Positions 24,285-45,332 of a stretch of 64,000 nucleotides of DNA are shown in pieces. Location of the stretch: NCBI GenBank assembly GCA_964537525.1, contig CAZIAB010000001.1, positions 425-64,424 of the forward strand, read 5' to 3'. The notes under the pieces were generated by a model that saw only the letters and a program-made list of their open reading frames with translations, was not told the DNA's origin and did not search any database. Position 1 is the stretch's first letter, and every line of letters starts with the position of its first letter. Source of the stretch: an uncultured archaeon. GTDB taxonomy: Archaea; Aenigmatarchaeota; Aenigmatarchaeia; QMZP01. A program made the position numbers and the translations under genes.

Positions 24285-27200
24285 TTACGTCTTTGAGCTG
24301 AGCCTCTTTATCATGCTTATCTCTTCTTTCCTCGTCGTGGGGATTGCCGCAGGAGCGTTTATCTCAACAGGCGTTCCAGAGACTTCCGGGTAGACAATCT
24401 TTATCTCCTTCTTATTTTCGGTCTGAATCTCCTTCCATGCCCCAAGCTGGCCTGCCAAGTAGTCGACCTTGTTCTTGAAGGCATCCATCTCAGAATCCAT
24501 TATGTCCTCGTTTGTCTTTATCCGGGTCTCTATCTCGTCCCTGAGCTCGCTGACCTTCTCTTCCACGTCCTTGCCGTAATCCTTGATGCTACCGAGCCTC
24601 GTCCTGAGTTCTGTCACGGTCTCGCTGAGCTCCTTTATGGTCTTCTCTGATTCGGACAGTCTCTTTACCATTTCCTTCTGCCCCTCCGACATCTTCTTCA
24701 TGGATTCCACGCCCATCTTCTCTATGCTCTCGCTGAGCTTCTCCTCTATGCCGGGCATGCTGGCAAGCTCCCTGCCGAAGTCCTTTATGGTTTCCTTTGT
24801 CCTCATCTCAAGGTCCCTCGATTCCCTGAGTATCTTGTCAAAATCCCGCTTTCTTCTCTCTTCTGAGAGCTCGATGTCGCCAGACATCTCTGAAATCTCC
24901 TTCTTGGCCTCGGCAAGGACCAGCCTCTTGTGGTCATCTAGCATGCTTCTCGTCCTCGTCTCGTGTTCCTTTGACAGGGATACCATATCCGATTCCATCC
25001 TGGATATTCTCTCCCTTTCTGCAGACAGCTCTCCCTGAAGGCCTCTTATCTCCTTCAGGTATGCCTTTCCCTCATCCTCCAGCGTCTCCATCTTCTCTGT
25101 CATGTCCGAGAGGGAGGATATCTTTCCTGCCATCTCCTTTATCCTGGCAGAATTGCTGCCAAAGACCTTGAGCAGGGAGTCCATCACGGCAAGCTTCTTT
25201 CCAATCTCGTCTATCTCCCCTGCTGACATGTTTGAGATGTTTTCGAGGTTCGCGAGGCCTGATATCCTCTCCTTTATCCCGTTAATATCCTCAAGGCCGG
25301 ATTCTGTCTTCTTGGTCAGGGCAGAGATGCTGGATGATAATGACTTCTCCAGGACGGCTATCCTGCTGTTGAGGGAATTCTGGATGTCCTCCTGAGACGC
25401 CTTCAGCAGGCCAATGTCAGCTGCCGTCTTGTTGATTAGTTCCATGCCCTCGTCCAAATCAGAAGAGAGCTTGCTGTCCGTATCCATCCTTCCGGATTCG
25501 ATGTCATCGATCCTCTTGCTTATTGACTTCACGGTATTGATGAATTCTGATTCCTTGACCGTTCCCTTCCCGAGTCCCTCGCCCATCTTCGATAGGTAGG
25601 AAACCCTCTCCTTCATGACCCCAACATCTGCCATCATGCCCTCTGCCATTGCCAGGCTCTTTGCGAGGCTGCCTGAAACTATTGCCTGCGCCTTGAGCTC
25701 GTCATCAATAGATATCAGGTTCTCAGAGAGCTTGCTGAGCCTCTTCTCGTTGCCTGACACGTACGAATTGAGCTTCTTCTCCATGTCCTTTACCCTTGCG
25801 AGCCATGCCTTTGTATCATTGGTGTTCATGCCTGCCTGTTCCTTCCTTGCTTCCGCTATGTCCTGGGCCAGTTGCTTTATCCTGTCGTTTATTCCGGACT
25901 GCAGGGAGAGGTATGTTTCTTTCTGGTCACTTGAAAGCTGCTTCGCTCTCTCTTCAATCTTATTCTGGAGGGACAGGTTCATTTCCTTCTGGTCATCAGA
26001 GAGCTTCTTTGTTTTTTCGTCAATCTCGTTCTGGAGGGACAGGTTTATGTCTTCCTGTTCCCTGGAAAACTGCTTCGCCTTCTTGTCAATCTCAGAGCGC
26101 AGGGATGCAAGGATTTCCTTCTGGGATTCAGAGACCGTCCCTATGTACTTCCTCTGGTCACCTATCTCCTGCCTGATTGATGAGATGTCCTGGAAAATCC
26201 TGTCAAGCCTGGACTCCTTCTTGCTGTCCTTCCCTCCGAAGACCTTCTCCAGGGCAGCTATCCTCTGCCTCCCCTCGGACAGGTTCTCCTCAAGTGACTT
26301 GAGCTGCTTTGAAAACATCCGGAAAATCTTCGAGTTTGACTCGATGTCCGTTATCCTCGCCACGAGGCTTTCGACGTCATCATGAAGGGAAACGACATCT
26401 TTCTTTTGCTCCTCTGCCATCCTTCTAATCGTCTGGTTAATTTCAGAACGAACGGATGAAGGAACAGTCTTCTGTTCATCTGACAGTCTTCCGAGGATTT
26501 TCTTCTGTTCCCCAATCTCTTTATTGATTGCCTTGGAGTTCGAATCAATGGTTGCCATCCTTTCCGTGATTTTCTTGATGTCGTTCATAAGGCCAGGGAA
26601 GGTTTTCGTGTCCGATTCCATCCTGGTTATCCTTGTCATCAGCTTCCCGACGTCATCATGAAGGGAGGATGCATCTGTCTTCTGTTCACCTGCCATTTGC
26701 TTAATCCTCTGGTCTATTTCGGAGCGCATGGATGAAGAAGCGGCCCTCTGTTCATCTGACAGTCTTCCGAGGATTTTCTTCTGTTCCCCAATCTCCTTGC
26801 CGAACATCTTCGTGGCCGATTCGATACCACCTATCCTCTCCCTCGTGCTTTCAATCTCGTCAATGATTTCCGGGAGCGGCTTGGTTCCCATCTCGAGCGC
26901 AATCACCCTTCCCTTGACGTCATCAAGCTCCACGATTGCCTTGGGGAGGAGCTTTATGTTAGCAATCATCTCCTTTATCTTCTGCACCATGTCCATTGTC
27001 TTGGGTATCTGGCTGACGACCGCCTCCATGCCGATTACCCTCTCCTCGAGCTCATCAACGGATTTGGTGTTGTCAGAGACGTCAGCTACGAGATTCTCGA
27101 GCTTCGTGAGCCTGTCCCTCATCGAGTGCATGCTGTCAACGCTCTGCTGGACCGTCTTTGAGAATGACTCAAGCCTCACGAGCGTCTTTGAGAATTCACC

Positions 27201-29606
27201 TATGTCAGAGTCGTGCTTCCCTACCGCATCAATGAGCGGCTTGAGGGATGACATCTTTTCAGATAGTTTCTTTATCTCAGATTCGTGGCTGGATATTGAC
27301 TTTATCGGGGCATCCAGGGCAGCCAGCCTCTGGTTTATTGCCTTTATCTCCTTCTCGTGCTCGGGTAGCATGCCTATGTCAGCTATCCTGTCCTTTATCC
27401 TTGCTATGAGCTGCTGGTTCTTCGAAACGTCTGAGACCGCGAGGTCGAGCGCGACGACCCTCTCCCTGAGGGAGGCGATGAGCCCTGAATTCTCTGATGC
27501 CTGCTTTGAGACCGAATCGTAATCAGACGAGAGGGTTTTGGAATCAGAGAGTGTCTGCTGGATGGCTGACTTCATGCTCTCCATGTCAGACATTATTCCC
27601 GGGATTGCTGAAGCGGAATCCTGCAGGGAGGTCATGTCCTTCTGCATCCTGTCGAACCGCTTCTCCTGTGACTTCGAGTATCCGTCCATCTCAGAAGCCA
27701 ATCCTGAAAGGCGCTTCATCTCGTCAGAGATCCTTGAGAGCTGCTCGCCTTTCTCCTTGTCAATCCTCTTGTCCATCTCAGACCTTATGCTCTTTGATTC
27801 CTTGGCGAGCTTTTCATCGAGCATCTTCGAGAAGCTGTCAATGCCGTCAAGCCTCGAGCGGACAACATCTATCTCGGCAAGCGCGTTCCTCACGTCACCA
27901 ATCTCCCTGTCGAGCCTGTCCAGCCGGGATTCCTTCTTCTTGTCCGTCACGCCGAATTCCTTCTCTATGGCAGCTATCCTCTGCCTCTCCTCGGACAGGT
28001 TCTCCTCAAGTGACTTGAGCTGCTCTGCAAGGGACTGGCTCCTCTCTAAAAGAATCTCCTTTGCCTCGTTTATCTTGCCTATCGAATCCTCAACAGATGA
28101 GAGCCTCTTAGGGACCTCCCTGGTCATCGCGTCAATGTTCCGTGTCCTTTCACCGAGGGTTTCCAGAACACCCTGGTTATCCGATATCTGCTTGGAGGCG
28201 AGCTCCATCTTCGTCAGCCTCTCCCTCAGCTTCGCTATGGCATCAGAATTCTCCTCGAGGGTATCTATCCCTGATATCTGCTCCCTTATCTTCGCTATTA
28301 CCTCGGCGTTCGCCTTTGCCTGACCGGCTATGGCCTTGAGGTTGCCGGACATCCTGCTGTCAATCTCTGCAATCCTCTCGGATATTGCCTTCCTGACGGT
28401 CTCCTGGGTCCTGTCCATTATCTTCTCGTCAGAGGCCAGTTCCATGATATGCTTCTCTATGCTTGCCCTCTCAGAGGCGAGCATCTTGTCAAGCGAGAAG
28501 AGCCTGTTCTCCGAGTCCTCGAGCCGCTTGTTGAGGTTGGAGAAAAGGTCAGAGAACTCTGAACGGCTGACCGAATTCTTGGCAAAGCCGGTGAGCATGG
28601 ACTCTGCCTCGGACAGCTTCTGCTTGATTATCTTTATCTCAGAGGGCGCGTCCTCGAGCAGCCTGGATATCCTGGATAGCTCCGAGTCATGGGATTTCTT
28701 GTACCCCCTCATCTCCTCCTCGAGGTTGGATATCCTGTTTATCTCTGTCCTGAATTCCATCAGCTGGGCCTTGTTGTCATCGAGCCTCTTCTGGTCAAAG
28801 TCCTTCCTCATGGAATCGGCAGCCTTCTGCAGGTCCTTCAGGAGCTCTGACCTCAGCTCTGCGAGGGAATCGCCCTGGAACCTGGAGAGCTTCCCGAGCT
28901 TTGAGTCAAGCGTTTTTGAGAATTCCTCTGTGCTGTCTGCCCTCTTCCTCAAAAGCTTTATCTCCGCCAGCGTTCCCTCCAGGTCGGCCACGTTCTGGCT
29001 TATCTTGTAGAACGCGCTGTCCTGGGTCTTCTTGTATGCCCGGAATTCCTCCTCTATGCCGGCTATCCTCTTTATCTCCTTCCTGAACTCTGACATCTGG
29101 GACTTTATGTCCTGAACGCGCTTCTTCTCGAAATCATCCTTTATGGAGTCAATGTTCCTCTCCAGCTCCCTGACCATCTCCCTCCTCGTCTCCTCCAGCG
29201 ATTTCGATTGGTCGCGGAGGCTTGAACGCAGGAGGTTTACTGATTCGAGGTCCTTCTGCATCATGTTAATCTGATTTATTAGAGAGTTTATGACAGACTC
29301 GTCCTTGTCGCTTCTTTTCTTCTGCGAAGAAATCTCCTTCTCGATTCCGTCTATTGACCTGAGCTCGACGCCTATCTCTGCGAGCCTCTCCTTTATCGGT
29401 TCTACCTGGTTCTTGACGAAATCCATTATCTTCTGGCTCGCCTGCTGGTATGATTCCTGCATCCTGCTGAGCCGTTCGGAAAAGGAGTTGGACCTGGCTA
29501 TGAGCTCTTCCTTCTCCTTCTCGAGCGCGGCTATTATCCTTCTCTGCTGCTCCTCGTTCTTCTTGAGGCGGACCACCCCTGCCTCAAGCTCGCTGAGTTC
29601 CTTCAT
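24285..29606 (-). CDS. giant cytoplasmic coiled-coil protein (1773 aa) built from ~90-aa repeat units; no TM helix, no P-loop
   Basis: Essentially a continuous heptad-like E/K/R/L/S-rich sequence. Recurrent units have the form F-D/E-x-K-R...E-F-R/K-x-E-I-x-R-I...LEEE-x-R-x-Y-KK-x-x-DS...IK-x-L-R/K-K-R-x-D...FSK-x-LDSKLGKLS. There is no Walker A motif or SMC hinge. It overlaps the upstream 838-aa gene by 4 bp. Confidence 0.7.
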   Translation of the reverse strand: MKELSELEAGVVRLKKNEEQQRRIIAALEKEKEELIARSNSFSERLSRMQESYQQASQKIMDFVKNQVEPIKERLAEIGVELRSIDGIEKEISSQKKRSDKDESVINSLINQINMMQKDLESVNLLRSSLRDQSKSLEETRREMVRELERNIDSIKDDFEKKRVQDIKSQMSEFRKEIKRIAGIEEEFRAYKKTQDSAFYKISQNVADLEGTLAEIKLLRKRADSTEEFSKTLDSKLGKLSRFQGDSLAELRSELLKDLQKAADSMRKDFDQKRLDDNKAQLMEFRTEINRISNLEEEMRGYKKSHDSELSRISRLLEDAPSEIKIIKQKLSEAESMLTGFAKNSVSRSEFSDLFSNLNKRLEDSENRLFSLDKMLASERASIEKHIMELASDEKIMDRTQETVRKAISERIAEIDSRMSGNLKAIAGQAKANAEVIAKIREQISGIDTLEENSDAIAKLRERLTKMELASKQISDNQGVLETLGERTRNIDAMTREVPKRLSSVEDSIGKINEAKEILLERSQSLAEQLKSLEENLSEERQRIAAIEKEFGVTDKKKESRLDRLDREIGDVRNALAEIDVVRSRLDGIDSFSKMLDEKLAKESKSIRSEMDKRIDKEKGEQLSRISDEMKRLSGLASEMDGYSKSQEKRFDRMQKDMTSLQDSASAIPGIMSDMESMKSAIQQTLSDSKTLSSDYDSVSKQASENSGLIASLRERVVALDLAVSDVSKNQQLIARIKDRIADIGMLPEHEKEIKAINQRLAALDAPIKSISSHESEIKKLSEKMSSLKPLIDAVGKHDSDIGEFSKTLVRLESFSKTVQQSVDSMHSMRDRLTKLENLVADVSDNTKSVDELEERVIGMEAVVSQIPKTMDMVQKIKEMIANIKLLPKAIVELDDVKGRVIALEMGTKPLPEIIDEIESTRERIGGIESATKMFGKEIGEQKKILGRLSDEQRAASSSMRSEIDQRIKQMAGEQKTDASSLHDDVGKLMTRITRMESDTKTFPGLMNDIKKITERMATIDSNSKAINKEIGEQKKILGRLSDEQKTVPSSVRSEINQTIRRMAEEQKKDVVSLHDDVESLVARITDIESNSKIFRMFSKQLKSLEENLSEGRQRIAALEKVFGGKDSKKESRLDRIFQDISSIRQEIGDQRKYIGTVSESQKEILASLRSEIDKKAKQFSREQEDINLSLQNEIDEKTKKLSDDQKEMNLSLQNKIEERAKQLSSDQKETYLSLQSGINDRIKQLAQDIAEARKEQAGMNTNDTKAWLARVKDMEKKLNSYVSGNEKRLSKLSENLISIDDELKAQAIVSGSLAKSLAMAEGMMADVGVMKERVSYLSKMGEGLGKGTVKESEFINTVKSISKRIDDIESGRMDTDSKLSSDLDEGMELINKTAADIGLLKASQEDIQNSLNSRIAVLEKSLSSSISALTKKTESGLEDINGIKERISGLANLENISNMSAGEIDEIGKKLAVMDSLLKVFGSNSARIKEMAGKISSLSDMTEKMETLEDEGKAYLKEIRGLQGELSAERERISRMESDMVSLSKEHETRTRSMLDDHKRLVLAEAKKEISEMSGDIELSEERRKRDFDKILRESRDLEMRTKETIKDFGRELASMPGIEEKLSESIEKMGVESMKKMSEGQKEMVKRLSESEKTIKELSETVTELRTRLGSIKDYGKDVEEKVSELRDEIETRIKTNEDIMDSEMDAFKNKVDYLAGQLGAWKEIQTENKKEIKIVYPEVSGTPVEINAPAAIPTTRKEEISMIKRLSSKT
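25899..26160. repeat. 4 tandem copies of a 66-bp in-frame repeat (22-aa units QKExxLSLQNxIxExxKxLSxD) inside the 1773-aa coiled-coil gene
   Basis: ctgGAGGGACAGGtt... units recur at 25899, 25965, 26031 and about 26097 with the same period. The protein repeats are EQEDINLSLQNEIDEKTKKLSD / DQKEMNLSLQNKIEERAKQLSS / DQKETYLSLQSGINDRIKQLAQ. Confidence 0.7.
26400..26950. repeat. two direct copies of an approximately 276-bp in-frame repeat (about 92-aa units) inside the 1773-aa coiled-coil gene
   Basis: An identical 49-mer, tctgttcatctgacagtcttccgaggattttcttctgttccccaatctc, occurs at 26471 and 26747. The encoded units are INKEIGEQKKILGRLSDEQ(R/K)...SEI(D/N)Q(R/T)I(K/R)(Q/R)MA(G/E)EQK...SLHDDV..L..RIT..ES(D/N)(T/S)K. 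Confidence 0.7.
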
Positions 29607-32119
29607 GATGACAGCTCCTTTATTATGCTTCCAACCCTCTCCCTCTGCTCCCTGACATCCCTCTCGAGCTGGCGCCTCTCAGCCATGTTCTGCTTCAGGG
29701 CCTTCTCGAGTTCCTTCATGTCAAGGTTTATTTTCTCCTCCAGCACTCCATAGAGGGACCTTATCTCCTTCACCTGCTTGTCTATCATCGATATCTGGCT
29801 GACTATCCTCGATATCTGGTCCGAGACCTTCTCCCCGCTCGCGTCCATCCTCGAATCGAAAGCCTTGCTTATGTCATTCAGCTCGTCCGTCCTCTCCTTC
29901 AGGAACTTTATGTCAGTCAGCGCGCCCTGGAGGGTCGTCAGGTCGTTCCTGAGTGCATCGAGCCTCGACTCCTGTGAGGTGTTGGTTGCCTCGAGGGTCT
30001 CCTCCAGGGAAGCGAGCCTCTTGAAGTCTGCCTTTATCTGGTTCAGCTGCTCCTGCCTGTCAAGCATCCTTTTTTCGTCAATCTCCTTTGCCATTCCCTT
30101 CAGGCTCTTCTCGAGCGATGAATGGAGTTCGTCGCTTATTGCATCGAGCCTCTCCTTCTGGTATTGTATCATGTCGCTGAACTTCTTCTCGAGCTTCTCT
30201 GAGAAGCTCTCTACGTCAGACATCCTCGGCCCGAGAGCCAGGGCCCTTGAGATATTATCCTTCATCTTGCCCATCTCATCACTGAGCCTCTCGATTCCCT
30301 TGTCCATGACCTTCTTGCTTGCCCTGAGCTCCTCCTCGAGACCGGACACCCTCTTGGTCTCTGACTTGAACTCCTCGAGCTGGTTCTTGGAGTCAATCTC
30401 CCTCCTCTTGTCCATCTCCTTCTTTATATCAGAGACCTCGCTCTTTAGCTCCTTCTTGAGAGAATCTCCCAGCTTCGAGATGCTCTGCTTCTGCCCCTCC
30501 AGCAACTCGCTGAACCTGGCCTCCTGAATGGTAAGACGCTGCGCTATCGCGGATATGTCCTCGCGGTTCGTGGCGAGCTTCTCCGAGAGCCCGCTTATCT
30601 CAAGTCCCATTGATTCTGAACGCTGGACAACCATGTTCCTTGCCTCGAGGAACTTGTTGATTGCGATATCCTGGTTGTCAATCCTCTTGGGAAGGGTCTT
30701 CGTCTCTGACCATATCGTGTTGATGTTGTCCCTGGTCTCCTCGTTCCTCTTGACCTGCCTCTCGTGGAACTTCTTCAGCTTGTTTACGTCTGCCTGGAGA
30801 CCCCTCTCTATGGAGGACATCCTCTTCTCTAGCCAGACCTTTATGTTCTCAGGCGCCTCTATGTTCTTTATTGCCTCGTAGAGCTCATTCTCTCTCTTGT
30901 CAGAGAGCTTCATCCTTTCGTCAATCAACATGTCCCTCTTTTCCAGTTCAGCGAACCTCGGCTGTATCAGGGAGAGGAAGGTCTTGTGGATGTCCTTGTC
31001 AATCTTGTCCATGTCCTTCTTCTGGATTTCCCTGAGGTCCTGGTATATCTTATCGGTGACGCTCTCTATCTTCTTCTTTATGTCATCTCTCAGGCCCTTG
31101 ACCCCATCGGAGAGACGGTCCTCCTGCTCGTCCATGTCCTTGGAGAGCTGGTCCTTGTCTGACCTGAGCTCTGCTATGTCCTCCCTGAGCTTCTGGAGGT
31201 TCAGGACCTCCTCCTTGAGGTGGTTGAGCCTGACGTTGAAATCATTGACCAGGTCCCTCATGTCCCTTACCTCGTTCACGGCAGGGTCGAGCTTTGTCTT
31301 GAGCTTCTTGCCTACCAAATCCGGTATCACCTGCTCTATTATCTCGTCGCTGGAGAATATCAGCTTCCTGAGCTTCTGGACGTTGTCAGGCCCGAGCTTC
31401 TGGTTCAACTGCTCGTATCTCTCCTCAAGGTCAGGGAACCTCTCGAGTATCTTTGACTTGTCCTCCAGGTTGGAAACGCGATAATCCAGCTTCTTGCTGG
31501 TGTTGTCAATGTTCCTTGCAATCTCCGAGATTGCCTTCTTCAGGTCGAATATCTGCGACTGGAAATCGACTTCCTCACCGAACGAGGCCAGTTGCCTTCC
31601 TGCTGCTCCGCCACCCCCGCCCTGGGGAAGGGGCTGCATTGCCTGCTGATTGAGCCTGTCCGCGAGCTCGGTTAATTTCGCTTCCATGTCAGAAAGCTTG
31701 CCGAGCTTACCCAGCTCTTCTGACATCGCTGAAAGCTTTGAATCAACCTTCTTCTTTATCATCTCTGACAATTCTTTCTTCATCCCCGATTCATTCTTTG
31801 ATGAAGAATTCTGCGCAGAGGCTTGGGCTGGCTGGGGATTCGTGCCGGTTTGTTGCGGCTTTTCCTGAGCAGCCGCATGGGAGGATTTAAGCCCCTCCTC
31901 GAGATTTTGCGCGGCCTTCCCGAGGTTCGAGAGCCCTCCGGAATCGTTTTTCTCTCCCTCTGGCGATTCGCGGACTCCCTTGGTGACCTCTTCTATTATG
32001 CTAGCGAGATTCCTGTTTTTCTCGAGAAGCTCGAGCTTTTCGCTTTCCAGCTTCCTGATGTTGTCATCTTCCTTGTCAAGCTCCTTCTTCATGTTACCGA
32101 GCTTCTTTTCGCCAGCCAT
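29603..32119 (-). CDS. cytoplasmic coiled-coil protein (838 aa), paralogous repeat architecture to the 1773-aa protein; N-terminal region with Q/P/G-rich low-complexity inserts
   Basis: A continuous coiled-coil. It contains the same type of ~90-aa units as the 1773-aa protein (e.g. EIDEKRMLDRQEQLNQIKADFKRLASLEETLEATNTSQESRLDALRNDLTTLQGALTDIKFLKERTDELNDISKAFDSRMD). Q/P-rich and GGGGG low-complexity stretches occur near residues 80-190. No TM helix or P-loop. Confidence 0.7.
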   Translation of the reverse strand: MAGEKKLGNMKKELDKEDDNIRKLESEKLELLEKNRNLASIIEEVTKGVRESPEGEKNDSGGLSNLGKAAQNLEEGLKSSHAAAQEKPQQTGTNPQPAQASAQNSSSKNESGMKKELSEMIKKKVDSKLSAMSEELGKLGKLSDMEAKLTELADRLNQQAMQPLPQGGGGGAAGRQLASFGEEVDFQSQIFDLKKAISEIARNIDNTSKKLDYRVSNLEDKSKILERFPDLEERYEQLNQKLGPDNVQKLRKLIFSSDEIIEQVIPDLVGKKLKTKLDPAVNEVRDMRDLVNDFNVRLNHLKEEVLNLQKLREDIAELRSDKDQLSKDMDEQEDRLSDGVKGLRDDIKKKIESVTDKIYQDLREIQKKDMDKIDKDIHKTFLSLIQPRFAELEKRDMLIDERMKLSDKRENELYEAIKNIEAPENIKVWLEKRMSSIERGLQADVNKLKKFHERQVKRNEETRDNINTIWSETKTLPKRIDNQDIAINKFLEARNMVVQRSESMGLEISGLSEKLATNREDISAIAQRLTIQEARFSELLEGQKQSISKLGDSLKKELKSEVSDIKKEMDKRREIDSKNQLEEFKSETKRVSGLEEELRASKKVMDKGIERLSDEMGKMKDNISRALALGPRMSDVESFSEKLEKKFSDMIQYQKERLDAISDELHSSLEKSLKGMAKEIDEKRMLDRQEQLNQIKADFKRLASLEETLEATNTSQESRLDALRNDLTTLQGALTDIKFLKERTDELNDISKAFDSRMDASGEKVSDQISRIVSQISMIDKQVKEIRSLYGVLEEKINLDMKELEKALKQNMAERRQLERDVREQRERVGSIIKELSS

Positions 32120-32415
32120 CCTGAATCATACCCCCTGGAAACGGTTCTTCCCGGATACTGCAATTTTTGAGGAAAATTAGAAAGTTTTTTCCGGGTGAAA
32201 ATTTCCTCTGGAATTCTCATAGTAAATAATTATAAAGGGGCTATATAAATCAAAAAGGACTGCTTTTTATATGTTAATACTATTATGCTGATATTTGTTT
32301 TTTTCAGAAAAATCGCCCAAAAAAAGATACTGTGTATACGACTTTTTGGGGGGTAAGCCTCATTTTTCGTTTTTTACGGAAAATTTTATATTACACGCAT
32401 ACAATACTTTATTGC
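32120..32415. promoter_or_regulatory. about 300-bp markedly AT-rich divergent intergenic region
   Basis: Composition here departs sharply from the surrounding ~50% GC. It contains ttataaagggg, ctatataaatc, ttttatatgttaatactattatg, poly-T and poly-A runs, and TATA-like boxes on both strands. It sits between the 838-aa coiled-coil gene (-) and a hypothetical gene (+). Confidence 0.4.
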
Positions 32416-33072
32416 ATGATAAAGAAAGAGAAGATAACGGACTACAGGAACTTCTGGCTCATCTGGCTCAGCTGCGCAGGGAAACCAGACAAGGGAGAAT
32501 CGCTTTTCGGGATACAGAATGCATGGGACATCAAGACAAACTATCTCTATCATCATGAGACCGGTCTCGGAAAGCCCTTGTACGTGCATATGATAAGGAA
32601 AAACTACATCCGCAAGGAAAAGACAAAACTGGTCCCGAATTTTGCCTGGATAAACGAGTACATAAAGGAAATCGTTGGTGAGGGGGTGGGCAATACATGG
32701 TATCCGAGCGTCTTCATCGGCGGGCGGTGGCCGATTGTCCAGAGCTTCATAGAGAAGAACGCGAACGTGCTTTTCAGCATGGAGAACCTGAAAACTCTCT
32801 ATAAGGAAGATAGGAACATACTTGGCGAGTCCGGTCGTCACATCTTTACAGACATTTTCCTTTACGTAATCTTTTCGAACATGATACAATTCTGTAAAAA
32901 ATACCACGCTGACATCGTATTAAGAATCCTTTCTACTTTCATATCAGTGTTCGCAGACAGGGACCTGCTCAATTACATAAGGAAGATGCACAGCCAGATC
33001 GGTGATAACGTACCAGTATTGATATCCAATGAAGCAGAGATGAACAGGCTCATGTACCCATTTAAGTGGTGA
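32416..33072 (+). CDS. hypothetical protein, aromatic-rich (W/Y/F), no recognisable domain
   Basis: 218 aa from the ATG at 32416 (MIKKEKITDYRNFWLIWLSCAGKPDKGE...). The ORF-track start at 32332 is GTG and lies inside the AT-rich tract. The ORF is uninterrupted, but I recognise no homology, so confidence is low. Confidence 0.4.
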   Translation: MIKKEKITDYRNFWLIWLSCAGKPDKGESLFGIQNAWDIKTNYLYHHETGLGKPLYVHMIRKNYIRKEKTKLVPNFAWINEYIKEIVGEGVGNTWYPSVFIGGRWPIVQSFIEKNANVLFSMENLKTLYKEDRNILGESGRHIFTDIFLYVIFSNMIQFCKKYHADIVLRILSTFISVFADRDLLNYIRKMHSQIGDNVPVLISNEAEMNRLMYPFKW

Positions 33073-33263: not shown

Positions 33264-34037
33264 ATGACCAGGATAATAGGCATAGTTTCCGGGAAGGGGG
33301 GAGTCGGTAAGACCACCGTAGCTCTCAACATAGGAACCGTCCTCGCAAAGAAATACAAGAAGGACGTCATAATAGTTGACGGCAACATGACGACATCCCA
33401 CCTCGGTCTGTACATGGGGATGTACTATTATCCAATATCGCTCAACCACGTCCTTTCAGGGGAGGTCGTGATAGACAAGGCAATGTACGACTACAGCATC
33501 CCCGGGGTGAGGATAATACCCGCCTCACTGTCACTGGATGACCTGAAGGGGATGGACGTTTCTGAAATGAAGAAGCACGTAAAGGAACTGTTCGGAAAGG
33601 CCGATTTCGTCATACTCGACGGGGCGCCGGGGTTCGGAAGGGAGGCCATGGCAACCATCAGAGCGTCTGATGAGGTACTCTTCGTGATGACGCCGTTCGT
33701 CCCGCCGCTGATGGACGTCATCAAGTGCTACCAGGTCGCCGAGGAGCTGGGCGTCAGGTCTCTGGGCGTCGTCCTTAACATGACCGGTGAGGGGAGGCAC
33801 GAGCTCGGCAAGCAGGAGGTCGAGCAGCTGATAGAGCTTCCTGTGATATCCATGATACCGAGGGACAAGGAGGTCCTCAGGAGCCTCTCTGCAAAGCTTC
33901 CTGTAACTGACATGAGCCCCAACACCAAATCCAGCAGGGAGCTTGACAGGCTGGCGGCATACATAGCAGGCGAATACTACACCCCGCCCGGGATGGTTTC
34001 AAGGCTCTCTGGCCTGTTCAGAAGGCCAAAGGCCTAA
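33264..34037 (+). CDS. minD: MinD/ParA-family P-loop ATPase (archaeal MinD-like)
   Basis: MTRIIGIVSGKGGVGKTTVALNIG... with a deviant Walker A (GKGGVGKT) and a Walker B region (FVILDGAPG). About 257 aa with no DNA-binding extension. A GGTGG ribosome-binding site lies 7 nt upstream. Start moved from the ORF-track start (33171) to the ATG at 33264. Confidence 0.85.
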   Translation: MTRIIGIVSGKGGVGKTTVALNIGTVLAKKYKKDVIIVDGNMTTSHLGLYMGMYYYPISLNHVLSGEVVIDKAMYDYSIPGVRIIPASLSLDDLKGMDVSEMKKHVKELFGKADFVILDGAPGFGREAMATIRASDEVLFVMTPFVPPLMDVIKCYQVAEELGVRSLGVVLNMTGEGRHELGKQEVEQLIELPVISMIPRDKEVLRSLSAKLPVTDMSPNTKSSRELDRLAAYIAGEYYTPPGMVSRLSGLFRRPKA

Positions 34038-34241: not shown

Positions 34242-34790
34242 ATGCTGATGGGCATGGCAGGTGATATAGGATCCACTATAAGGAAGAACTCGATTTCTGT
34301 AATCGTGATGCCGAACACGGCCTATAACGAGACCCTGAAGGACATAGTGAGCGCTGCGCTGGATAAGCACGGCTCGCTCTGTTACATATCGCTCAACAAG
34401 CCATACAACAGCGTGATGACATATCTGAAGAACAAGGGGATTAGTTCTGAGAACATAATATTCATAGACGCGGTGACGAAAAAGCCAGAATCCGATTCAG
34501 ACCAGGTGATATACGTTTCTTCGCCGACAGCACTGACAGAGATTAACATAACCATGAACAAGGTCCTCGAGGCAGGCGGGATAAAGGCCGTCCTCATAGA
34601 TTCCATATCGACGCTTCTGCTCTACACAGAGGAATCGGTCGTCCTGAAGTTCGTGCATTCAATCGTCTCGAAGATGAGGAGCGACAGCAATGACTGCATA
34701 ATGGCTGCCATAGAGGACGAATCCACAAGAGAACTTATAGATGACATGTCAATGTTCGTTGACGAGATTCTGGAGCTGGGCAGGAAATGA
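34242..34790 (+). CDS. inactivated KaiC/RecA-like domain protein (P-loop-less KaiC-like; probably the family catalogued as DUF835)
   Basis: 182 aa. It aligns to the RecA/KaiC core (LCYISLNKPYNSVMTYLKNKGISSENIIFIDA ... KAVLIDSISTLLLY ... KFVHSIVSKMRSDSNDCIMAA), but the Walker A position reads VIVMPNTAYNE with no GxxxxGK[TS]. It is a clear paralog of the ORF at 44715-45332. Confidence 0.6.
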   Translation: MLMGMAGDIGSTIRKNSISVIVMPNTAYNETLKDIVSAALDKHGSLCYISLNKPYNSVMTYLKNKGISSENIIFIDAVTKKPESDSDQVIYVSSPTALTEINITMNKVLEAGGIKAVLIDSISTLLLYTEESVVLKFVHSIVSKMRSDSNDCIMAAIEDESTRELIDDMSMFVDEILELGRK

Positions 34791-35701
34791 ATCCAGTAAA
34801 AGGCAAGACCGGAGGGTCAGGGGCCTCAGAGAAACCCGGGGAACCGGAGATAATCAAATCAATAGTCCTGGATACGATATCAGAGCTAATTATATATCAG
34901 GACACTGAGATGAGGATACTCTGGGTGAACAAGGCTGCTGCGGAGTCAGTGAAGAAGAATCCAGGGGAGCTTGCAGGGAAGCACTGCTACGAGGTCTGGC
35001 CCGGGCACAATAAACCCTGCGTTGGTTGTCCTATCATGAAATCACTGAAGAGCGGGAAGCAGGAAACAGGTGAGGTGACCACCCCTGATGGGAGGGTCTG
35101 GATTATCAGGGGATATCCTGTAATCGAAAACGGGAAGATTGTGAACATGGTGGAAATCGTGCTCGAGATGACCGAGCAGAGGAAGATAGAAGAGAGATAC
35201 AGGAGCCTGGTCGAGCTTGCTCCTGACGGTATAATCAGCGCGGACACGAAAGGGAACATCATTACGTGCAACGATGCCTTTGCAGAGCTCTCTGGCTACA
35301 GGAAGGATGAAATTGCCGGGAAGAATTTCGTGAATCTCCCGACGCTTAGAAAGAGGGACCTGCCAAGGTACATCAAGCTCTTTGCTTCTGTCGTTCGCGG
35401 GAAAAGGCCCGGGCCGTTTGAGTTCGAGTGGGTCCATAAGGACGGCTCTGTCAGGATGGGCGACATCCGCATCGGGGTATTGAAGAAGGACGGGAAGATA
35501 ACAGGCATCCAGGCAGTCATCAGGGACGTTACGAACAGGAAGAAGGCAGAGGAGAATGTTAGCAAGAGAACAGAGGAACTGGAGAGGATAAACAAGCTCT
35601 CCATCGGAAGGGAAGTCAAGATGTCAGAACTCAAGAAAAGGCTAGGGAGGCTTGAGGCTCTGCTGAAGAAGCACGGGATTAGTGAGAAGGATGTGGATTA
35701 G
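34787..35701 (+). CDS. double-PAS-domain signalling protein with a C-terminal coiled-coil
   Basis: Two PAS-like segments (ISELIIYQDTEMRILWVNKAAAE... and APDGIISADTKGNIITCNDAFAELSGYRKDEIAGKNF...) followed by a helical K/E-rich tail. The first PAS carries an HCYEVWPGHNKPCVGCP Cys cluster. The start overlaps the upstream stop (ATGA). Confidence 0.75.
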   Translation: MNPVKGKTGGSGASEKPGEPEIIKSIVLDTISELIIYQDTEMRILWVNKAAAESVKKNPGELAGKHCYEVWPGHNKPCVGCPIMKSLKSGKQETGEVTTPDGRVWIIRGYPVIENGKIVNMVEIVLEMTEQRKIEERYRSLVELAPDGIISADTKGNIITCNDAFAELSGYRKDEIAGKNFVNLPTLRKRDLPRYIKLFASVVRGKRPGPFEFEWVHKDGSVRMGDIRIGVLKKDGKITGIQAVIRDVTNRKKAEENVSKRTEELERINKLSIGREVKMSELKKRLGRLEALLKKHGISEKDVD

Positions 35702-35703
35702 GG

Positions 35704-38700
35704 ATGAACGTCTACAACCTTTTGCCTCTGGTTGCTTTTTCTTCAAACATTGCGCTTGCCCTTTACATACTGTACAGGAATCCCGGGGACAGGCTGAACA
35801 GGATATTCAGCATCGTGCTTTTCTCGGTGGCGGTCTGGTCAATCGGAGAATTTCTATCCTTCACGTCAGCAACGCCTGAGATGTCCGTCCAGCTTTATAC
35901 GATTGCGTGGTCAGGCTCATTGCTGGTTCCGGGCGTGCTGCTGCATTTCTTCCTGGAGTTCACAGGGAGCAGTATAATTAAAAGGAAAAGGAACATACCT
36001 CTTCTTTACCTGCCATATGCGTTCTTCCAGTGCATGGTGATTTTCATGCCAGGCCTCCTGGCGGAATCTGCAAGCGCCACATACTGGGGATACGGATTCG
36101 TGCGCGGGATTCTTTACGTCCCTGTCGTGTTATACCTGCTGGGTTATACGATTGCAGGGATCCTTGCATGCTACAGGTTCTATCTCAAATCCGCAGGCAG
36201 GGTGAGGAATCAGGCAAGGCTCCTCATAATTTCCATGGTCTTCTCGCTGATAGGTGGCATCATAACCGATGTCTTCATGCTGAACGTGGGGTTCGCGGCG
36301 TTCCCGCCCCTGACAACGACATTCTCGACCTTCACTGGGGCGATAATAGCCTATGCAATAGTCAGGCACGGGCTCATGTCTCCCATGAGTTTCAGCATAC
36401 GGAGGAAGACTGCCACGGTCTTTTTGCTGTTCATCATAGCCTTCTGTGCTTTCACGTTTTCCCTGGAGAGCATCTTCTCAGCGAGCGTTGTAGAGGTCCA
36501 GGCCAGGGAGCACCTTGAAACGATAACCCAAATCAAGACGAACTGGATTGATTCTTACATGGGTGACAGGGAGAGCGACATCAAACTCCTTGCATCATCA
36601 TCATCTGTCAGACAGGCATTCAACGGGAAACTTGGCATAGAGATCCAGCTCGCGAAGGACAGCATAAAGCAGAAAGCGATTGAAGTTGCTGGCCAGGTCG
36701 ACGATTACATCAGCAGCCATCCCGGCATGACGGTCGGGGAGCTCCAGAACGACCCGGCGTTCCAGGAGATTGCGGTCCAGCAGGTCGGGGAGACAGGATA
36801 CACGGCACTCACTGATTATGATACCCTGATATGCAGGTTCCATAAGAACCCCGACCTCGTTGACGTTGATTTGCATTCCTTTGCTGAAAGCCTTCCCGGG
36901 TTCTGGTCTGTAATGTCAGAGACAGAAGGAGGAAATGAAGCAGAGGGCTTCTATGACTGGGAAGAGCCTGACGGCAGCATGAAGGAGAAATATATGTATA
37001 TCACGATTCCCATGAGGAGAACAGCCGACGGTGTGGGGGGGCTGAGCGTTGCGGCAACGACCTATCTTGAGGAGTATGAATCCACGATGAAGCTGGCAAA
37101 GGAGTATGAGGATTATTTCCTTGGTTTCATGGAGAACTATGATTATCGTGAGATGTTCCTGATAAGTGCGGGTGGCGAGGTCTGGTGGGCAGCAAGAGAA
37201 AAGAGCGGAATTGGGAAGGACCTTGATGAAGAGCCTTACAACCAAACGGCGCTTGCACGCGTATACAGGGAATCCAGGAACGAGGGCAGGGCTTTCTATG
37301 ACTATGAAATTGATGTGACGGGCGAGGCGTCATTCTTTATTTCTTTTCCCGTTTACATAGAGGACAGGCTCGCTGGGATAATCGTCCTGCAGACAGGGAC
37401 GGAAGACATTGACAGCATCCTGGAGGACAGGACAGGCCTCGGGGAAACCGGGGAAAGCTATCTCGTGGGTGCGGATTACCTCATGAGGTCAAACTCGAGG
37501 TTCCATGAGGAAAGCACGATACTCAGGCTGAGGGTTGATACGGATAACGCAAAGGACTGCTTCCTTCATAAAACCCTTCGTGAAGAAGAAATCGGGGAAA
37601 TGCACGGGGAGATAAAGATAACCAGCAACTACATGGGAACGAGCGTCCTTGGGACGCATGAATACATACCTGAAATGGATTTGTGCCTCCTCGTTGAAAT
37701 CAGCGAGTCAGAGTTGTTCGCTCCCATAAGCGAGATGCAGCAGGGCTTGTTGATATACTTCATCATCATCGTGGTTCTGGGTGCGTTGGTTTCTATTCTC
37801 GTATCCAGCTCTATAACGAAACCCATAATCCGGCTAAGGGATGCCGTGGTTGAGATTGGCAGGGGAAAGCTCAATACCAGGATACTGGTCAATACAGGGG
37901 ACGAGATAGGCGAACTTGCATCTGCTTTCAGGAAGATGACAGGTAACCTGAGGGATTCGCGCAGGGAGATAGAGAAGCGTGCCGAGGAACTGGAGAAGAG
38001 CGTCCATGAGAGGACTGAGCAACTTGACGTGAGGGTCAAGGAACTTACGGACACCAAGACTGCCATCCTTAACATGATGGAGGACGTTGACAAGACCAAC
38101 ATGGAACTGATGAATACCCAGAAGCAGCTGAAGAAGAGCCTTTCTGAGCTGGAGGAGGTCGATGTCAAGAAGAACCAGTTCATCTCCATAGCCGCCCATG
38201 AGCTGAAGACCCCGCTCACGTCGATACATGGATTCTCACAGCTCCTGCTAAACAAGAATGTCGCAGAAAAGGTTGATATGAGGAACAAATACCTCAAGAT
38301 AATGGACCACGAAACCAGGAGGCTTGCAAACCTCGTTGATGACATCCTTGACCTATCCAGGATAGACATGGGGACAATGAAATTCAGCCTTGATAACGTT
38401 GACATGAACGAACTGCTTGACAGCATCAGGAAAGAGGCGGACGTGCTCATAAAGAACAAGGGCCTCCAGCCTGAATATGAGATAAGCAAGAAACTGCCGA
38501 AGGTAAGGACAGACCCTGAGAAGCTGACGCAGGTGCTGATAAACCTGATAAACAATGCCGCGAAATATACCCCAAAGGGCAAGGTAACGTTAAAGGCCTT
38601 GAGGGAAGACCACAGCGTGCGTTTCGTCATAAAGGATACCGGCATAGGGATACCGAAAAACAAGCAGAAAAAGATATTCGAGAGGTTCTACCAGATTGAT

Positions 38701-38955
38701 TCTTCATACACGAGGAGCGCCGGGGGAACCGGTTTGGGCCTTGCACTCTGCAAGGAGTTCATAGAGATGCTTGGCGGTGAGATATGGGTGAACAGCGAAC
38801 CTGGAAAGGGGAGCGAGTTCCATGTCCTACTGCCAATCAGGGCCACCCTCAAGAAGGGTGCCAAGGAGAGAGCGAGAGAAAGCCTAATGAAGGCCAAGAT
38901 TGTTTTGCCTGATGCGGAAAAAGCTACCTTGAAACAGCCCACTCAATCCTCCTGA
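35704..38955 (+). CDS. sensor histidine kinase: N-terminal 7-8 TM domain, large extracytoplasmic Cache-like sensor domain, TM, HAMP, coiled-coil, HisKA, HATPase_c
   Basis: 1083 aa. About 8 TM helices in residues 1-250, a roughly 450-aa extracytoplasmic region, a TM helix (LLIYFIIIVVLGALVSILV), a HAMP-like region (IRLRDAVVEIGRGKLNTRI...GDEIGELASAFRKM), the H-box FISIAAHELKTPLTSI, an N-box LINLINNAAKYT and G-boxes DTGIGI / GGTGLGLALC. No receiver domain. Confidence 0.85.
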   Translation: MNVYNLLPLVAFSSNIALALYILYRNPGDRLNRIFSIVLFSVAVWSIGEFLSFTSATPEMSVQLYTIAWSGSLLVPGVLLHFFLEFTGSSIIKRKRNIPLLYLPYAFFQCMVIFMPGLLAESASATYWGYGFVRGILYVPVVLYLLGYTIAGILACYRFYLKSAGRVRNQARLLIISMVFSLIGGIITDVFMLNVGFAAFPPLTTTFSTFTGAIIAYAIVRHGLMSPMSFSIRRKTATVFLLFIIAFCAFTFSLESIFSASVVEVQAREHLETITQIKTNWIDSYMGDRESDIKLLASSSSVRQAFNGKLGIEIQLAKDSIKQKAIEVAGQVDDYISSHPGMTVGELQNDPAFQEIAVQQVGETGYTALTDYDTLICRFHKNPDLVDVDLHSFAESLPGFWSVMSETEGGNEAEGFYDWEEPDGSMKEKYMYITIPMRRTADGVGGLSVAATTYLEEYESTMKLAKEYEDYFLGFMENYDYREMFLISAGGEVWWAAREKSGIGKDLDEEPYNQTALARVYRESRNEGRAFYDYEIDVTGEASFFISFPVYIEDRLAGIIVLQTGTEDIDSILEDRTGLGETGESYLVGADYLMRSNSRFHEESTILRLRVDTDNAKDCFLHKTLREEEIGEMHGEIKITSNYMGTSVLGTHEYIPEMDLCLLVEISESELFAPISEMQQGLLIYFIIIVVLGALVSILVSSSITKPIIRLRDAVVEIGRGKLNTRILVNTGDEIGELASAFRKMTGNLRDSRREIEKRAEELEKSVHERTEQLDVRVKELTDTKTAILNMMEDVDKTNMELMNTQKQLKKSLSELEEVDVKKNQFISIAAHELKTPLTSIHGFSQLLLNKNVAEKVDMRNKYLKIMDHETRRLANLVDDILDLSRIDMGTMKFSLDNVDMNELLDSIRKEADVLIKNKGLQPEYEISKKLPKVRTDPEKLTQVLINLINNAAKYTPKGKVTLKALREDHSVRFVIKDTGIGIPKNKQKKIFERFYQIDSSYTRSAGGTGLGLALCKEFIEMLGGEIWVNSEPGKGSEFHVLLPIRATLKKGAKERARESLMKAKIVLPDAEKATLKQPTQSS

Positions 38956-39301
38956 TGAGGTCATTGTTGTCAAAGGGTTTCGTGATGTAGTCAAGAATCA
39001 TCAGTTTCTTGAGGGTGCGGTAATTGATTTCCTTTGATTTCAGTATGGTAAGGAAGACTATCTTCGTTTTCCTGGTTTTCGGGGTTTCCCTTATCTTCTT
39101 CGCGACATCGGTTCCCTTCATACCGGGCATCATTATGTCAAGCAGTAGAAGGTCTGGCTTCTCATTCTCGATAATTTCGAGGGCTTCCCTGCCATTGCCC
39201 GCAGTCACTACGTCAAAGCCCTTTGAATCGAGCAGGTCCCTTATCAGAATTAACAGATTCTCTTCATCATCAACGACCATTATCTTTTTCTTCTTGGGCA
39301 T
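38924..39301 (-). CDS. stand-alone CheY-like response-regulator receiver domain protein
   Basis: 125 aa. IMVVDDE, the phospho-acceptor D in LLLLDIMMPG, and T/K positions (FLTILKS...ITKPF). No output domain. Its 3' end overlaps the histidine-kinase 3' end by about 30 nt in a convergent arrangement. Confidence 0.85.
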   Translation of the reverse strand: MPKKKKIMVVDDEENLLILIRDLLDSKGFDVVTAGNGREALEIIENEKPDLLLLDIMMPGMKGTDVAKKIRETPKTRKTKIVFLTILKSKEINYRTLKKLMILDYITKPFDNNDLIRRIEWAVSR

Positions 39302-39326
39302 GTCATGTCCTGAGATGCAGAAGATG

Positions 39327-39698
39327 TCATCCGATAATCTTCTTGATTCTCTTCAGTAAATCGGCGTTGTCAAATGGTTTCGTGATGTAATCCGAGACTC
39401 CCATCTTCTTCAGCGTGTCTTTTCCGGATTCAGAGAACTTTGCAACGGTCAGGAAGGCGACTTTCAGGTCCTTTGTCCCGGGGTCTGCCCTTATCTTCTC
39501 GCAGACCTCCCTGCCGCTCATCCCGGGCATCATCATGTCGAGGAGGACCAGGTCAGGCTTGGTCTTCTTCAGTTTCTCCAGGGCTTCCCTGCCATTGCTG
39601 ACCGCTATCACGTTATATCCCTCGGCCCCCAGGATTGCCTTTATCAGCTCAAGAAGTGAAGACTCGTCATCCACTGCCATTATGGTCTTTGACATCAT
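39327..39698 (-). CDS. stand-alone CheY-like response-regulator receiver domain protein (tandem paralog)
   Basis: 123 aa. IMAVDDE, LVLLDMMMPG, FLTVAKF...ITKPF. Paralogous to the adjacent receiver. Confidence 0.85.
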   Translation of the reverse strand: MMSKTIMAVDDESSLLELIKAILGAEGYNVIAVSNGREALEKLKKTKPDLVLLDMMMPGMSGREVCEKIRADPGTKDLKVAFLTVAKFSESGKDTLKKMGVSDYITKPFDNADLLKRIKKIIG

Positions 39699-39791
39699 TT
39701 ATATTTGTTTATGTTTTATTTAAATCTGAATTCCGGCGTCTGTTTTATAAACCGGTCCGCCAATATATTAATTACTATAGTAGTGGTGATT
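39699..39791. promoter_or_regulatory. AT-rich divergent promoter region between the CheY pair (-) and the KaiC-like gene (+)
   Basis: ttttatttaaat and gttttataaacc TATA-like boxes. A GGTGA ribosome-binding site lies 5 nt before the KaiC ATG. Confidence 0.4.
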
Positions 39792-40646: not shown

Positions 40647-40659
40647 CCGTTAAATTATT

Positions 40660-44718: not shown

Positions 44719-45332
44719 CCGGGCGGGAGCTCGGGGGTGTCGAGACCGGACAGGCCGTAAGGCCAGACAGCACCTGAATCGTGGCTTATCTTCCCTGGCT
44801 CATCGGGGGGTTTTCCTTCCCTGTCCATGGCCGTAAGGTCCTTTGTTTCATCAGCGAACATGACTAAATCGTCTATGAATTCATCAACGTTGACTTCGGA
44901 AACGGTATCCCTCGAAATCATGTAAACAATCTTGCCGGGATTCCCTGCCTTGACGCTGTTGGTGAACCTGAGCACGGATGATGGCTCATGGTATCTGAGG
45001 AGGCAGGATATGTCATCGAACACGAAGGCGTTGCACCTCTTCTTCATCCTGAGTATTGCCCCGGAAATCTCATCAATCGCAGAGGGTGAGGATATGTATA
45101 AGCATCTCTCTGTGGATTCCTGGCTCGAATAGTGGCTGCTGAGGGTGTCTATGAAGCAAAGACTCTTTGCGTCAATGCCGTTCTTTTTCAGTGTTTTCAT
45201 TGCAGAAGAAACAGTATCACTGAGGCACACGTAGCATATCCTATGGTTCCTGAGCTTCTTGATGATGTTCGTTTTCTTGAAATGCTCATCAGACCTTATG
45301 AGGAAAATGAAGAGCCCGTTCTTATCAAACAT
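44715..45332 (-). CDS. inactivated KaiC/RecA-like domain protein, paralog 2 (no P-loop)
   Basis: 205 aa. ICYVCLSDTVSSAMKTLKKNGIDAKSLCFIDT...CLYISSPSAIDEISGAILRMKKRCNAFVFDDISCLLRY...KIVYMISRD aligns to the ORF at 34242 and to the KaiC core, but lacks Walker A. It ends in a P/G-rich tail. Convergent with the 1352-aa gene, overlapping it by 4 bp. Confidence 0.55.
   Translation of the reverse strand: MFDKNGLFIFLIRSDEHFKKTNIIKKLRNHRICYVCLSDTVSSAMKTLKKNGIDAKSLCFIDTLSSHYSSQESTERCLYISSPSAIDEISGAILRMKKRCNAFVFDDISCLLRYHEPSSVLRFTNSVKAGNPGKIVYMISRDTVSEVNVDEFIDDLVMFADETKDLTAMDREGKPPDEPGKISHDSGAVWPYGLSGLDTPELPPG

Follow-up and report, generated by a model that had tools for sequence, protein, structure and literature searches.

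An uncultured archaeon of the phylum Aenigmatarchaeota (contig CAZIAB010000001.1) carries, within the 64,000-nucleotide stretch of DNA analysed here and called the window below, two tandem genes, A and B, which encode very long coiled-coil proteins. The locus raises the question of what such proteins may do in the cell, as by sequence they form a small family without a Pfam or NCBIfam family assignment. An initial annotation of the window had placed the two open reading frames (ORFs) of 1773 and 838 amino acids (aa) exactly and had read them as spectrin-like scaffold filaments. The main new finding reported here is the gene context, namely the linkage of A and B, in about 40 Aenigmatarchaeota loci, with genes for a MinD-type ATPase, a winged-helix protein (X), a small transmembrane (TM) protein (T) and giant surface proteins (G1 to G3). 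The core of the locus in the window is as follows.

24285-29606, minus strand: gene A, 1773 aa, segmented coiled-coil rod protein (ORF, heptads, dN/dS)
29603-32119, minus strand: gene B, 838 aa, coiled-coil protein, putatively coupled translationally to A (ORF, ATGA overlap)
32120-32415, no strand: B/X spacer, divergent promoter region with three T5-N3-6-A4-5 palindrome-like sites at 32164, 32298 and 32370
32416-33072, plus strand: X, 218 aa, phylum-specific, N-terminal winged helix and C-terminal helical domain
33264-34037, plus strand: MinD, 257 aa, archaeal MinD-type ATPase, deviant Walker A SGKGGVGKTT, C-terminal tail PPGMVSRLSGLFRR

A MinD-centred gene set conserved across Aenigmatarchaeota

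The genes of X and MinD are encoded divergently about 300 bp upstream of B, and these partners were overlooked in the initial annotation. A genome scan with the 218-aa protein X returned 47 loci, and those bearing a phylum name were nearly all assigned to Candidatus Aenigmatarchaeota (DPANN). X, MinD, B and A were linked in about 35 loci, and B adjoined X-MinD in 35, which is the co-conservation expected of a scaffold partnering a ParA/MinD-type ATPase. Contigs with distant A homologues (27-28% identity) carried the same four genes, that is, a MinD/ParA-family ATPase, X, B and A. Identity between the window and loci L001 and L003 was 70-74% for MinD, 57-63% for X, 38-40% for B and 27-28% for A. 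Two gene orders recurred, a divergent one as in the window (A<-B<- and X->MinD) and a colinear one (X->MinD->(T)->B->A), in which neighbouring genes were -7 to +55 nt apart. The B-to-A junction measured -4, -1, 0 or +4 nt in nearly all loci, with two exceptions of +20 and +54 nt, and the adjoining termini, a C-terminal motif of B and an N-terminal motif of A, were conserved phylum-wide.

By sequence, the neighbouring ATPase is a member of the archaeal MinD family. It scored 204.1 bits with the archaeal minD model TIGR01969 (minD_arch; cut-off 201.75) and carries KGGxGK[ST]; the partition ParA model gave only 55 bits against a cut-off of 180. Its top match in the PDB was MinD-1 of Archaeoglobus fulgidus (1hyq, 1.4e-44), and further archaeal MinDs were found (1ion and 1g3q). 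An amphipathic tail motif was kept in about 38 loci, for example as ESFFSRLFRLFGG, GMVSRLSGLFRR or EGFFFNILKFF, and was missing in the distant loci L044 and L051, both of which are also without B and A. The tail resembles the membrane-targeting helix of MinD-type proteins and may act as one.

In most relatives a further small gene, T, completes the set. Examples outside the window are given here.

L017 11498-11761, L030 11537-11809 and L013 7518-7799 (minus strand): T, 87-93 aa, N-terminal TM helix and coiled coil ending KKLIEELGK

T was located directly upstream of B in 21 loci, at distances of -7 to +39 nt, including the divergent-type loci L013, L016 and L022. The apparent gap between MinD and B in the colinear clade is occupied by T. 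No T gene is encoded in the window or in its closest relatives. In L037, T follows MinD despite the lack of B and A.

The winged helix of X is of the ArsR/MarR type and lies directly before a ParA/MinD-family ATPase, an arrangement which would also fit a role in chromosome organisation or segregation, with X as a centromere binder, MinD as a ParA-like motor and B and A as head-less SMC-like tethers. The palindrome-like T5-N-A5 sites clustered beside X and the automatic name of B in the source databases, 'chromosome segregation ATPase', agree with this explanation. It is nevertheless improbable in our judgement. The name is an automatic artefact of coiled-coil matches, no source offering a meaningful one, and A and B have no head, hinge or hook (see below); the ATPase is MinD rather than ParA by the scores above and has a membrane-type tail, and T is a membrane protein. 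The three spacer sites were the sole matches to T5-N3-6-A4-5 in the 64-kb window, and the pattern was enriched upstream of X in some relatives, but colinear-clade loci did not retain it between MinD and B. For that reason the view of these sites as operators of winged-helix X, which they may be, stays an unconfirmed guess. A further element, TAATAGTAT...TATTAA, was common to the B/X spacers of related loci.

On the far side of MinD, three large genes recur.

45378-51296, minus strand: G1, 1972 aa, surface protein with signal/TM 5-23, CARDB/NPCBM_assoc-type domains, TM 1869-1887 and an 85-aa cytoplasmic tail
51297-53060, minus strand: G2, 587 aa, E/K-rich, without TM, between G3 and G1
53073-63908, minus strand: G3, 3611 aa, TM 3214-3232 followed by a cytoplasmic HerA/FtsK-type P-loop domain with Walker A GSTGAGKT at 3295

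Orthologues of G1, G2 and G3 occurred within 10 kb of X in 29, 16 and 18 loci, respectively. Among the 19 loci with at least 9 kb of flank on both sides, MinD was found in 19/19, B in 18/19, G1 in 14/19, and G2 and G3 in 13/19 each. The order in the colinear clade was G3->G2->G1->X->MinD->T->B->A; in L014, L015 and L022, G1 stood convergent right after MinD, with G2 and G3 also there in the latter two. Full-length G1 orthologues were 33-47% identical and directly adjoined X or MinD in the 29 loci, G2 orthologues (16 loci) were always positioned between G3 and G1, and the C-terminal 500-800 residues or so of G3 were 50-78% identical in 18 loci. This part of G3 matched the Pfam families DUF87 (30.7 bits, cut-off 23.2) and HerA_C (26.8 bits, cut-off 22). 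Residues about 3214-3611 of G3 (nt 53076-54269) thus join a HerA/FtsK-type ATPase to a predicted surface protein, an unusual fusion. G2 was considered as a paralogue of A and B and showed no homology to either.

A SHOCT-like motif, G-[IL]-IS-x-E-[AE]-[FY], was noticed in the tail of G1 (45381-45635) and at both ends of G2 (C-terminus 51300-51479); the SHOCT match in the G1 tail was sub-threshold (19 bits vs 27). Between MinD and G1, the window's clade alone carries an inserted signal-transduction island (34242-45332). It comprises two small KaiC-like/DUF7504-like paralogues (34242-34790 and 44715-45332), a protein with two PAS domains, a histidine kinase of 7TM-Cache-HAMP type, an ATPase of the KaiC family and a LamG surface protein of 1352 aa, the tail of which resembles the SHOCT-like motif of G1 and G2. 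The window otherwise presents an ordinary archaeal chromosomal context, with a RuBisCO large-subunit homologue (2021-3424, plus strand), an STT3/AglB oligosaccharyltransferase (10562-12904, plus strand), HMG-CoA reductase and diphthamide synthase.

Segmented rods and repeats in A and B

At the junction ...TCATCATGAAGG, the TGA of B shares 4 bp (ATGA) with the ATG of A, in agreement with the gene overlap described before, and GGAG is placed 10 nt upstream. Both proteins are rich in E, K, S, L, I, D and R (A: E 12%, S 12%, K 11%, L 9%, I 8%). Neither full sequence contains a Cys or the Walker A pattern GxxxxGK[ST], and a TM helix is absent from both because the top Kyte-Doolittle 19-mer reached only 1.09 in A and 0.62 in B. 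The ratio of nonsynonymous to synonymous substitution rates (dN/dS) against the closest orthologues (82-89% identical) was 0.16 for A and 0.10 for B; A and B are therefore constrained genes under purifying selection. On the opposite plus strand (24583-32170), a chain of S/F/L-rich ORFs of 115-264 aa runs antisense to A and B. These are shadow ORFs that mirror the GAA/AAG-rich coding strand and not genes.

Periodicity was measured as the power spectrum of hydrophobicity, with z-scores relative to composition-matched shuffles. The maximum was located at 3.5 residues in both proteins (z=33 for A and z=13.6 for B), and the power of A at 3.67 residues was lower (z=11.7). The heptads and the lack of TM helices bear out the initial annotation of A and B as E/K-rich, heptad-type cytoplasmic coiled-coil proteins, and its statement that Walker motifs and a zinc hook are missing was equally sound. 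Its description of both as almost entirely heptad-type sequence needs a correction, in that B residues about 44-114 and 159-186 are not heptads and form low-complexity linkers predicted to be disordered.

Internal repeats were detected by fragment BLAST with composition correction, with 10 shuffled copies as controls, and were then modelled with a repeat hidden Markov model (HMM). Fragment BLAST gave 41 matches, internal or from A to B (best 8e-33), against 0 matches to the 10 shuffled copies. Residues 131-229 of A matched A242-337 (41% identity, 2e-20) and A901-1018 matched A993-1110 (48% identity, 8e-33). The match of A130-240 to B540-650 (31% identity, 2e-14) defined a unit of about 111 aa common to both proteins, for which the HMM found strong copies at A130-241, 242-345, 490-602 and 599-688 and at B540-650 and 651-760. 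These results and the periodicity exclude non-homologous low complexity without heptads, the outcome that was to overturn the initial annotation. The homology of the repeat units was real, while their length had been given as about 90 aa; the consensus written there is that of the 111-aa unit, and a second type of about 92 aa is located at A875-1196. The block QLKSLEENLSEE/GRQRIAAI/LEKxFG, reported as a near-identical pair in A, does occur twice, beginning at residues 529 and 1101. The segments of both proteins were mapped as follows, all on the minus strand.

29457-29606, minus strand: A residues 1-50, best-conserved part of A, M-x-E-[LI]-x-E-[LV]-E-x-G-x-x-[RK]-L-K, candidate interaction segment
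28572-29489, minus strand: A residues 40-345, three copies of the 111-aa unit, 40-129 weak, 130-241 and 242-345 strong (i-Evalues 2e-49 and 6e-44)
27543-28139, minus strand: A residues 490-688, two more copies of the 111-aa unit (i-Evalues 3e-14 and 9e-17)
26019-26984, minus strand: A residues 875-1196, three to four copies of the separate 92-aa repeat, lineage-variable region
31565-32119, minus strand: B residues 1-185, short conserved K-rich N-terminal helix, two low-complexity disordered linkers flanking helix 109-160
31085-31591, minus strand: B residues 177-345, best-conserved region of the B family, LASFGEEVDF...LGPxNVQKLRKLIFSSDE...
29840-30502, minus strand: B residues 540-760, two copies of the 111-aa unit as in A (i-Evalues 1e-46 and 2e-46)
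29606-29722, minus strand: B residues 800-838, C-terminal motif ...R[IV]xx[IL][IL]KEL, kept in about 35 loci

Segment A1-50 was 47% identical to homologues that are about 27% identical overall, and its motif was found phylum-wide. The middle of A (650-1300) was variable, and A875-1196 was poorly alignable with distant homologues. In a 26-sequence alignment of B, nearly all invariant columns fell within residues 177-345. The number of 111-aa units was 2, 3 and 4 in B homologues of 838, 953 (P0110) and 1108 aa (P0104), respectively. This suggests that the length of B follows repeat copy number, as expected for a spacer or ruler-like rod.

The initial annotation had proposed one continuous coiled coil of 1773 residues. 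In fact G and P interrupt the sequences frequently, the longest G/P-free run being 96 aa in A and 60 aa in B, and since these breaks often interrupt the heptads, A and B are segmented rods and no single continuous coil. AlphaFold2 (AF2) was run on the B alignment and gave a predicted template modelling score (pTM) of 0.20, so that the secondary structure alone was usable. It showed helices at 272-417, 426-619, 634-758 and 765-837, with lengths of 73-194 residues and about one break per 111-aa unit, and the predicted local distance difference test (pLDDT) was below 50 at B 44-66, 75-114 and 159-186. With the alpha-helical rise of 0.148 nm per residue, A can measure at most about 260 nm and the helical part of B at most about 85 nm. 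In one sub-clade (L030 13796-17870, L034 13723-18361 and L036 4937-9575) A is encoded as two consecutive coiled-coil genes of 687 aa and 691-870 aa; the 1773-aa A of the window is therefore a fusion, or those genes are split.

Membership of A and B in known families was examined next to these data. Pfam, NCBIfam and PADLOC gave sub-threshold matches of coiled-coil type only (Baculo_PEP_C, NPV_P10, DUF7310 and the arms of SMC, Rad50, LmuB and JetC). The NCBIfam matches to SMC, Rad50 and archaea-specific SMC-related proteins (ASRP) were confined to arm positions (e.g. 700-1011 of 1181) and scored 93 bits against a cut-off of 567, the cut-offs of SMC-type models ranging from 300 to 1087 bits. Neither the N-terminal Walker A head nor the C-terminal Walker B/signature head of an SMC ATPase was present, no SMC hinge family was matched in Pfam at E<=1, and a zinc hook is excluded because proteins with zero Cys have no CxxC. 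The view that A and B are not SMC or Rad50 proteins with cryptic heads was thereby upheld. The PADLOC matches to LmuB and JetC were likewise restricted to the arms, and X, MinD and G2 gave none. An anti-phage defence system (Lamassu, Wadjet or HerA-type) was rejected, also because the locus keeps a stable position phylum-wide and viral contigs yielded no relatives of B.

A spectrin repeat is a unit of about 106 aa that forms a three-helix bundle with two turns per unit. The spectrin-like units of the initial annotation could not be retained, as no PF00435 match was obtained at E<=1 and the AF2 helices of B, from a model with pTM 0.20, had about one break per unit and did not form three-helix bundles. 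The same applies to crescentin or golgin membership, for which no evidence emerged: A and B had no match to the Filament family (PF00038) at E<=1, and their rods are 2-5 times longer than the rod domain of about 310 aa. A single precomputed 'faint' Filament match was found on one distant homologue. Hendecad periodicity of the Scy/FilP type (51 residues) was not seen either, the peak being at 3.5 residues and the units about 111 and 92 aa long. A search of the PDB with A gave no match at E<=1e-3, and the profile of 26 B sequences gave generic coiled-coil noise only. The family is small: in a search of 5.8 billion proteins, A had only 8 homologues and B 30, and the B profile matched 42 cluster representatives at E<=1e-30 among 1.84 billion.

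Long heptad rods with linkers, a repeat number that varies among lineages and the lack of any enzymatic domain could also describe a stand-alone, shape-determining cytoskeleton similar to crescentin or bacterial coiled-coil-rich proteins (CCRPs), acting independently of MinD and the surface proteins. Such a cytoskeleton seems quite improbable, as it leaves unexplained why A and B were retained phylum-wide beside X-MinD-T and G1-G3 through rearrangements, and the Filament family was not matched. Type VII secretion employs FtsK-type ATPases, and by analogy B and A could be secreted by the G3 ATPase to form extracellular, sigma-1-like attachment fibres of the kind suggested for other DPANN coiled-coil proteins, a reading which we regard as very improbable. 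This explanation draws on the membrane-proximal HerA/FtsK-type P-loop domain of G3 and on a weak match of the B profile to reovirus sigma-1 (6gao, E=0.003), the structure to which DPANN coiled-coil proteins were likened by Hamm et al. (10.1101/2023.02.24.529834). However, the sigma-1 match was at noise level among generic coiled-coil matches, and cytoplasmic MinD and the inward-facing coiled coil of T fit a cytoplasmic location better. A and B carry no signal peptides, and type IV pilus genes (including CpaF and TadC) were found neither among the window genes scanned nor in the examined flanks.

Interpretation of the locus as a possible sub-membrane scaffold

We favour, with about an even chance of being right, the reading that A and B are a MinD-organised sub-membrane scaffold of a lineage-specific envelope apparatus of Aenigmatarchaeota. 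An inner scaffold is proposed because A and B lie phylum-wide beside MinD, a winged-helix protein and giant surface proteins. The initial annotation had already suggested a sub-membrane scaffold for surface proteins; that part gains from the synteny, with G1-G3 orthologues beside X-MinD-(T)-B-A in most loci, in two arrangements and with T upstream of B, and what finds no support is the spectrin-like fold and the continuous coil.

In the scheme that we propose, for which we infer every physical interaction, the membrane binding, the filament formation and the identity of the cargo, B and A would be produced in fixed proportion through translational coupling at the ATGA. The conserved C-terminus of B would probably join the conserved N-terminus of A. 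MinD could bind the membrane by its amphipathic C-terminal tail, and membrane-bound ATP-MinD would recruit or pattern the B/A rods, plausibly by means of the K-rich N-terminal peptide of B on its long disordered linker. The rods may in turn keep the surface apparatus in place, or position it, by its cytoplasmic ends. T, in most relatives though not in the window, would serve as a small bitopic membrane anchor with a coiled-coil tail, and X may be a local regulator or a link to DNA.

The ParA/MinD partners PomX, ParB, MinE and McdB stimulate their ATPases by such peptides. A ParA/MinD-type ATPase together with two coiled-coil proteins, one of which carries a K-rich N-terminal peptide on a disordered linker, therefore also fits PomXYZ-type positioning, in which B and A would form a single cluster moved by MinD to mark the division site or another landmark, the surface genes being mere neighbours. 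There seems little chance of this. The genes conserved nearby encode surface proteins, both the MinD tail and T suggest a membrane rather than a nucleoid association, and no FtsZ, SepF or Cdv genes were linked in the window or in the examined flanks.

Several observations weigh against the MinD-organised scaffold. In a hydrophobic-moment test the MinD tails were not separated from the controls (with comparison peptides of E. coli and B. subtilis), and because the test was undiscriminating, motif resemblance is what speaks for membrane binding by MinD. The AF2 model of B, with its pTM of 0.20, is no reliable guide to tertiary or quaternary arrangement. L037, a complete genome (CP070804), has X-MinD-T without B, A or G1-G3 within 10 kb, and X stands by itself in some distant loci. 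The window lacks T, and its genes for MinD and G1 are about 11 kb apart, with sensor-kinase and KaiC-like genes in between, so that local linkage looks looser there than in most relatives. Since giant surface proteins are a frequent feature of DPANN genomes, adjacency to them is weaker evidence; full-length orthology in fixed position argues against chance adjacency.

Distant X homologues (41-43% identical) without MinD, B/A or G1-G3 were present in L045-L049. For two of the contigs the assigned taxa are Bathyarchaeota and Nanohalarchaeota, possibly because of mis-binning or because X is more widely distributed.

Attachment to other cells is the way of life of DPANN archaea. It is possible, though rather unlikely, that the linked genes G3-G2-G1, X, MinD, T, B and A (seven to eight genes) encode an envelope-spanning organelle that is the basis of host-attachment or transfer structures and of the cytoplasmic filaments of DPANN archaea. 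In such an organelle, a MinD-patterned B/A skeleton would hold the giant surface proteins, one of them fused to an FtsK/HerA-type translocase. Cryo-tomography of Nanobdellota has revealed an attachment organelle and 6.6-nm cytoplasmic filaments, the composing proteins of which were not identified (PMC11420986). Archaeal MinDs position envelope machines, likewise with structural partners not identified (10.1101/2020.04.03.021790; PMC11588486). The locus offers a concrete, phylum-wide candidate set, consisting of MinD, a winged-helix protein, a small membrane anchor, two rods and giant surface proteins including a HerA/FtsK-type fusion, and the module could help to address the composition of DPANN attachment organelles and filaments.

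Comparison with known systems

No description of a MinD-X-B-A module was found in the literature, and the conserved MinD-centred module is apparently undescribed. If the scaffold reading is true, the locus would show in archaea the pairing of a MinD/ParA ATPase and a large coiled-coil scaffold, which has until now been characterised in bacteria (PomXYZ, and Scy with ParA).

PomX, PomY and PomZ of Myxococcus xanthus combine a ParA/MinD-family ATPase with two coiled-coil scaffold proteins. Both systems are clusters of such an ATPase and two non-enzymatic coiled-coil proteins, and in both one partner has a short basic N-terminal peptide. However, no sequence relationship to PomXYZ appeared in any library search, A and B are two to four times longer, and in place of a nucleoid-binding ParA there is an archaeal MinD whose tail is of membrane type. 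The locus also has extra partners, namely the winged-helix protein X, T with its TM helix and the giant surface proteins.

Scy and FilP of Streptomyces are encoded by tandem long coiled-coil genes, one of them giant, with internal repeats, and Scy is functionally tied to ParA. A and B are tandem and repeat-bearing in the same way, and they are of scaffold type without enzymatic domains, as are crescentin and CCRPs. They differ from Scy in their heptads with a 3.5-residue peak, as opposed to a 51-residue hendecad-type repeat, and from Scy/FilP and crescentin in being archaeal, lineage-specific, encoded beside MinD and without a Pfam Filament match. With SMC, Rad50 and archaea-specific SMC-related proteins they share long coiled coils capable of antiparallel pairing and weak profile matches in the arm region, but terminal ATPase heads, hinge and CxxC hook are lacking and no PDB match was obtained.

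Among archaea, MinD4 and MinD2 of Haloferax volcanii position envelope machines (archaella and chemosensory arrays) and not FtsZ, and minD2 is co-transcribed with a small, functionally uncharacterised partner (10.1101/2020.04.03.021790; PMC11588486). The ATPase of the window belongs to the same archaeal MinD subfamily, whereas no coiled-coil partners were described in Haloferax and X, B and A have no counterparts there. DPANN-specific coiled-coil proteins (CCPs), one or two per genome, were reported beside type IV pilus-like loci, also in Aenigmarchaeota, and were suspected to act in host interaction; the loci were chosen for pilus or flagellar adjacency, and the two described carry CpaF and TadC (Hamm et al., 10.1101/2023.02.24.529834). 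Compared by description and not by sequence, A and B differ from these CCPs in that they have no pilus genes beside them and stand in the context of MinD, X and giant surface proteins. By analogy of function, the nearest designs would be the bacterial ones, PomXYZ and Scy/FilP with ParA.

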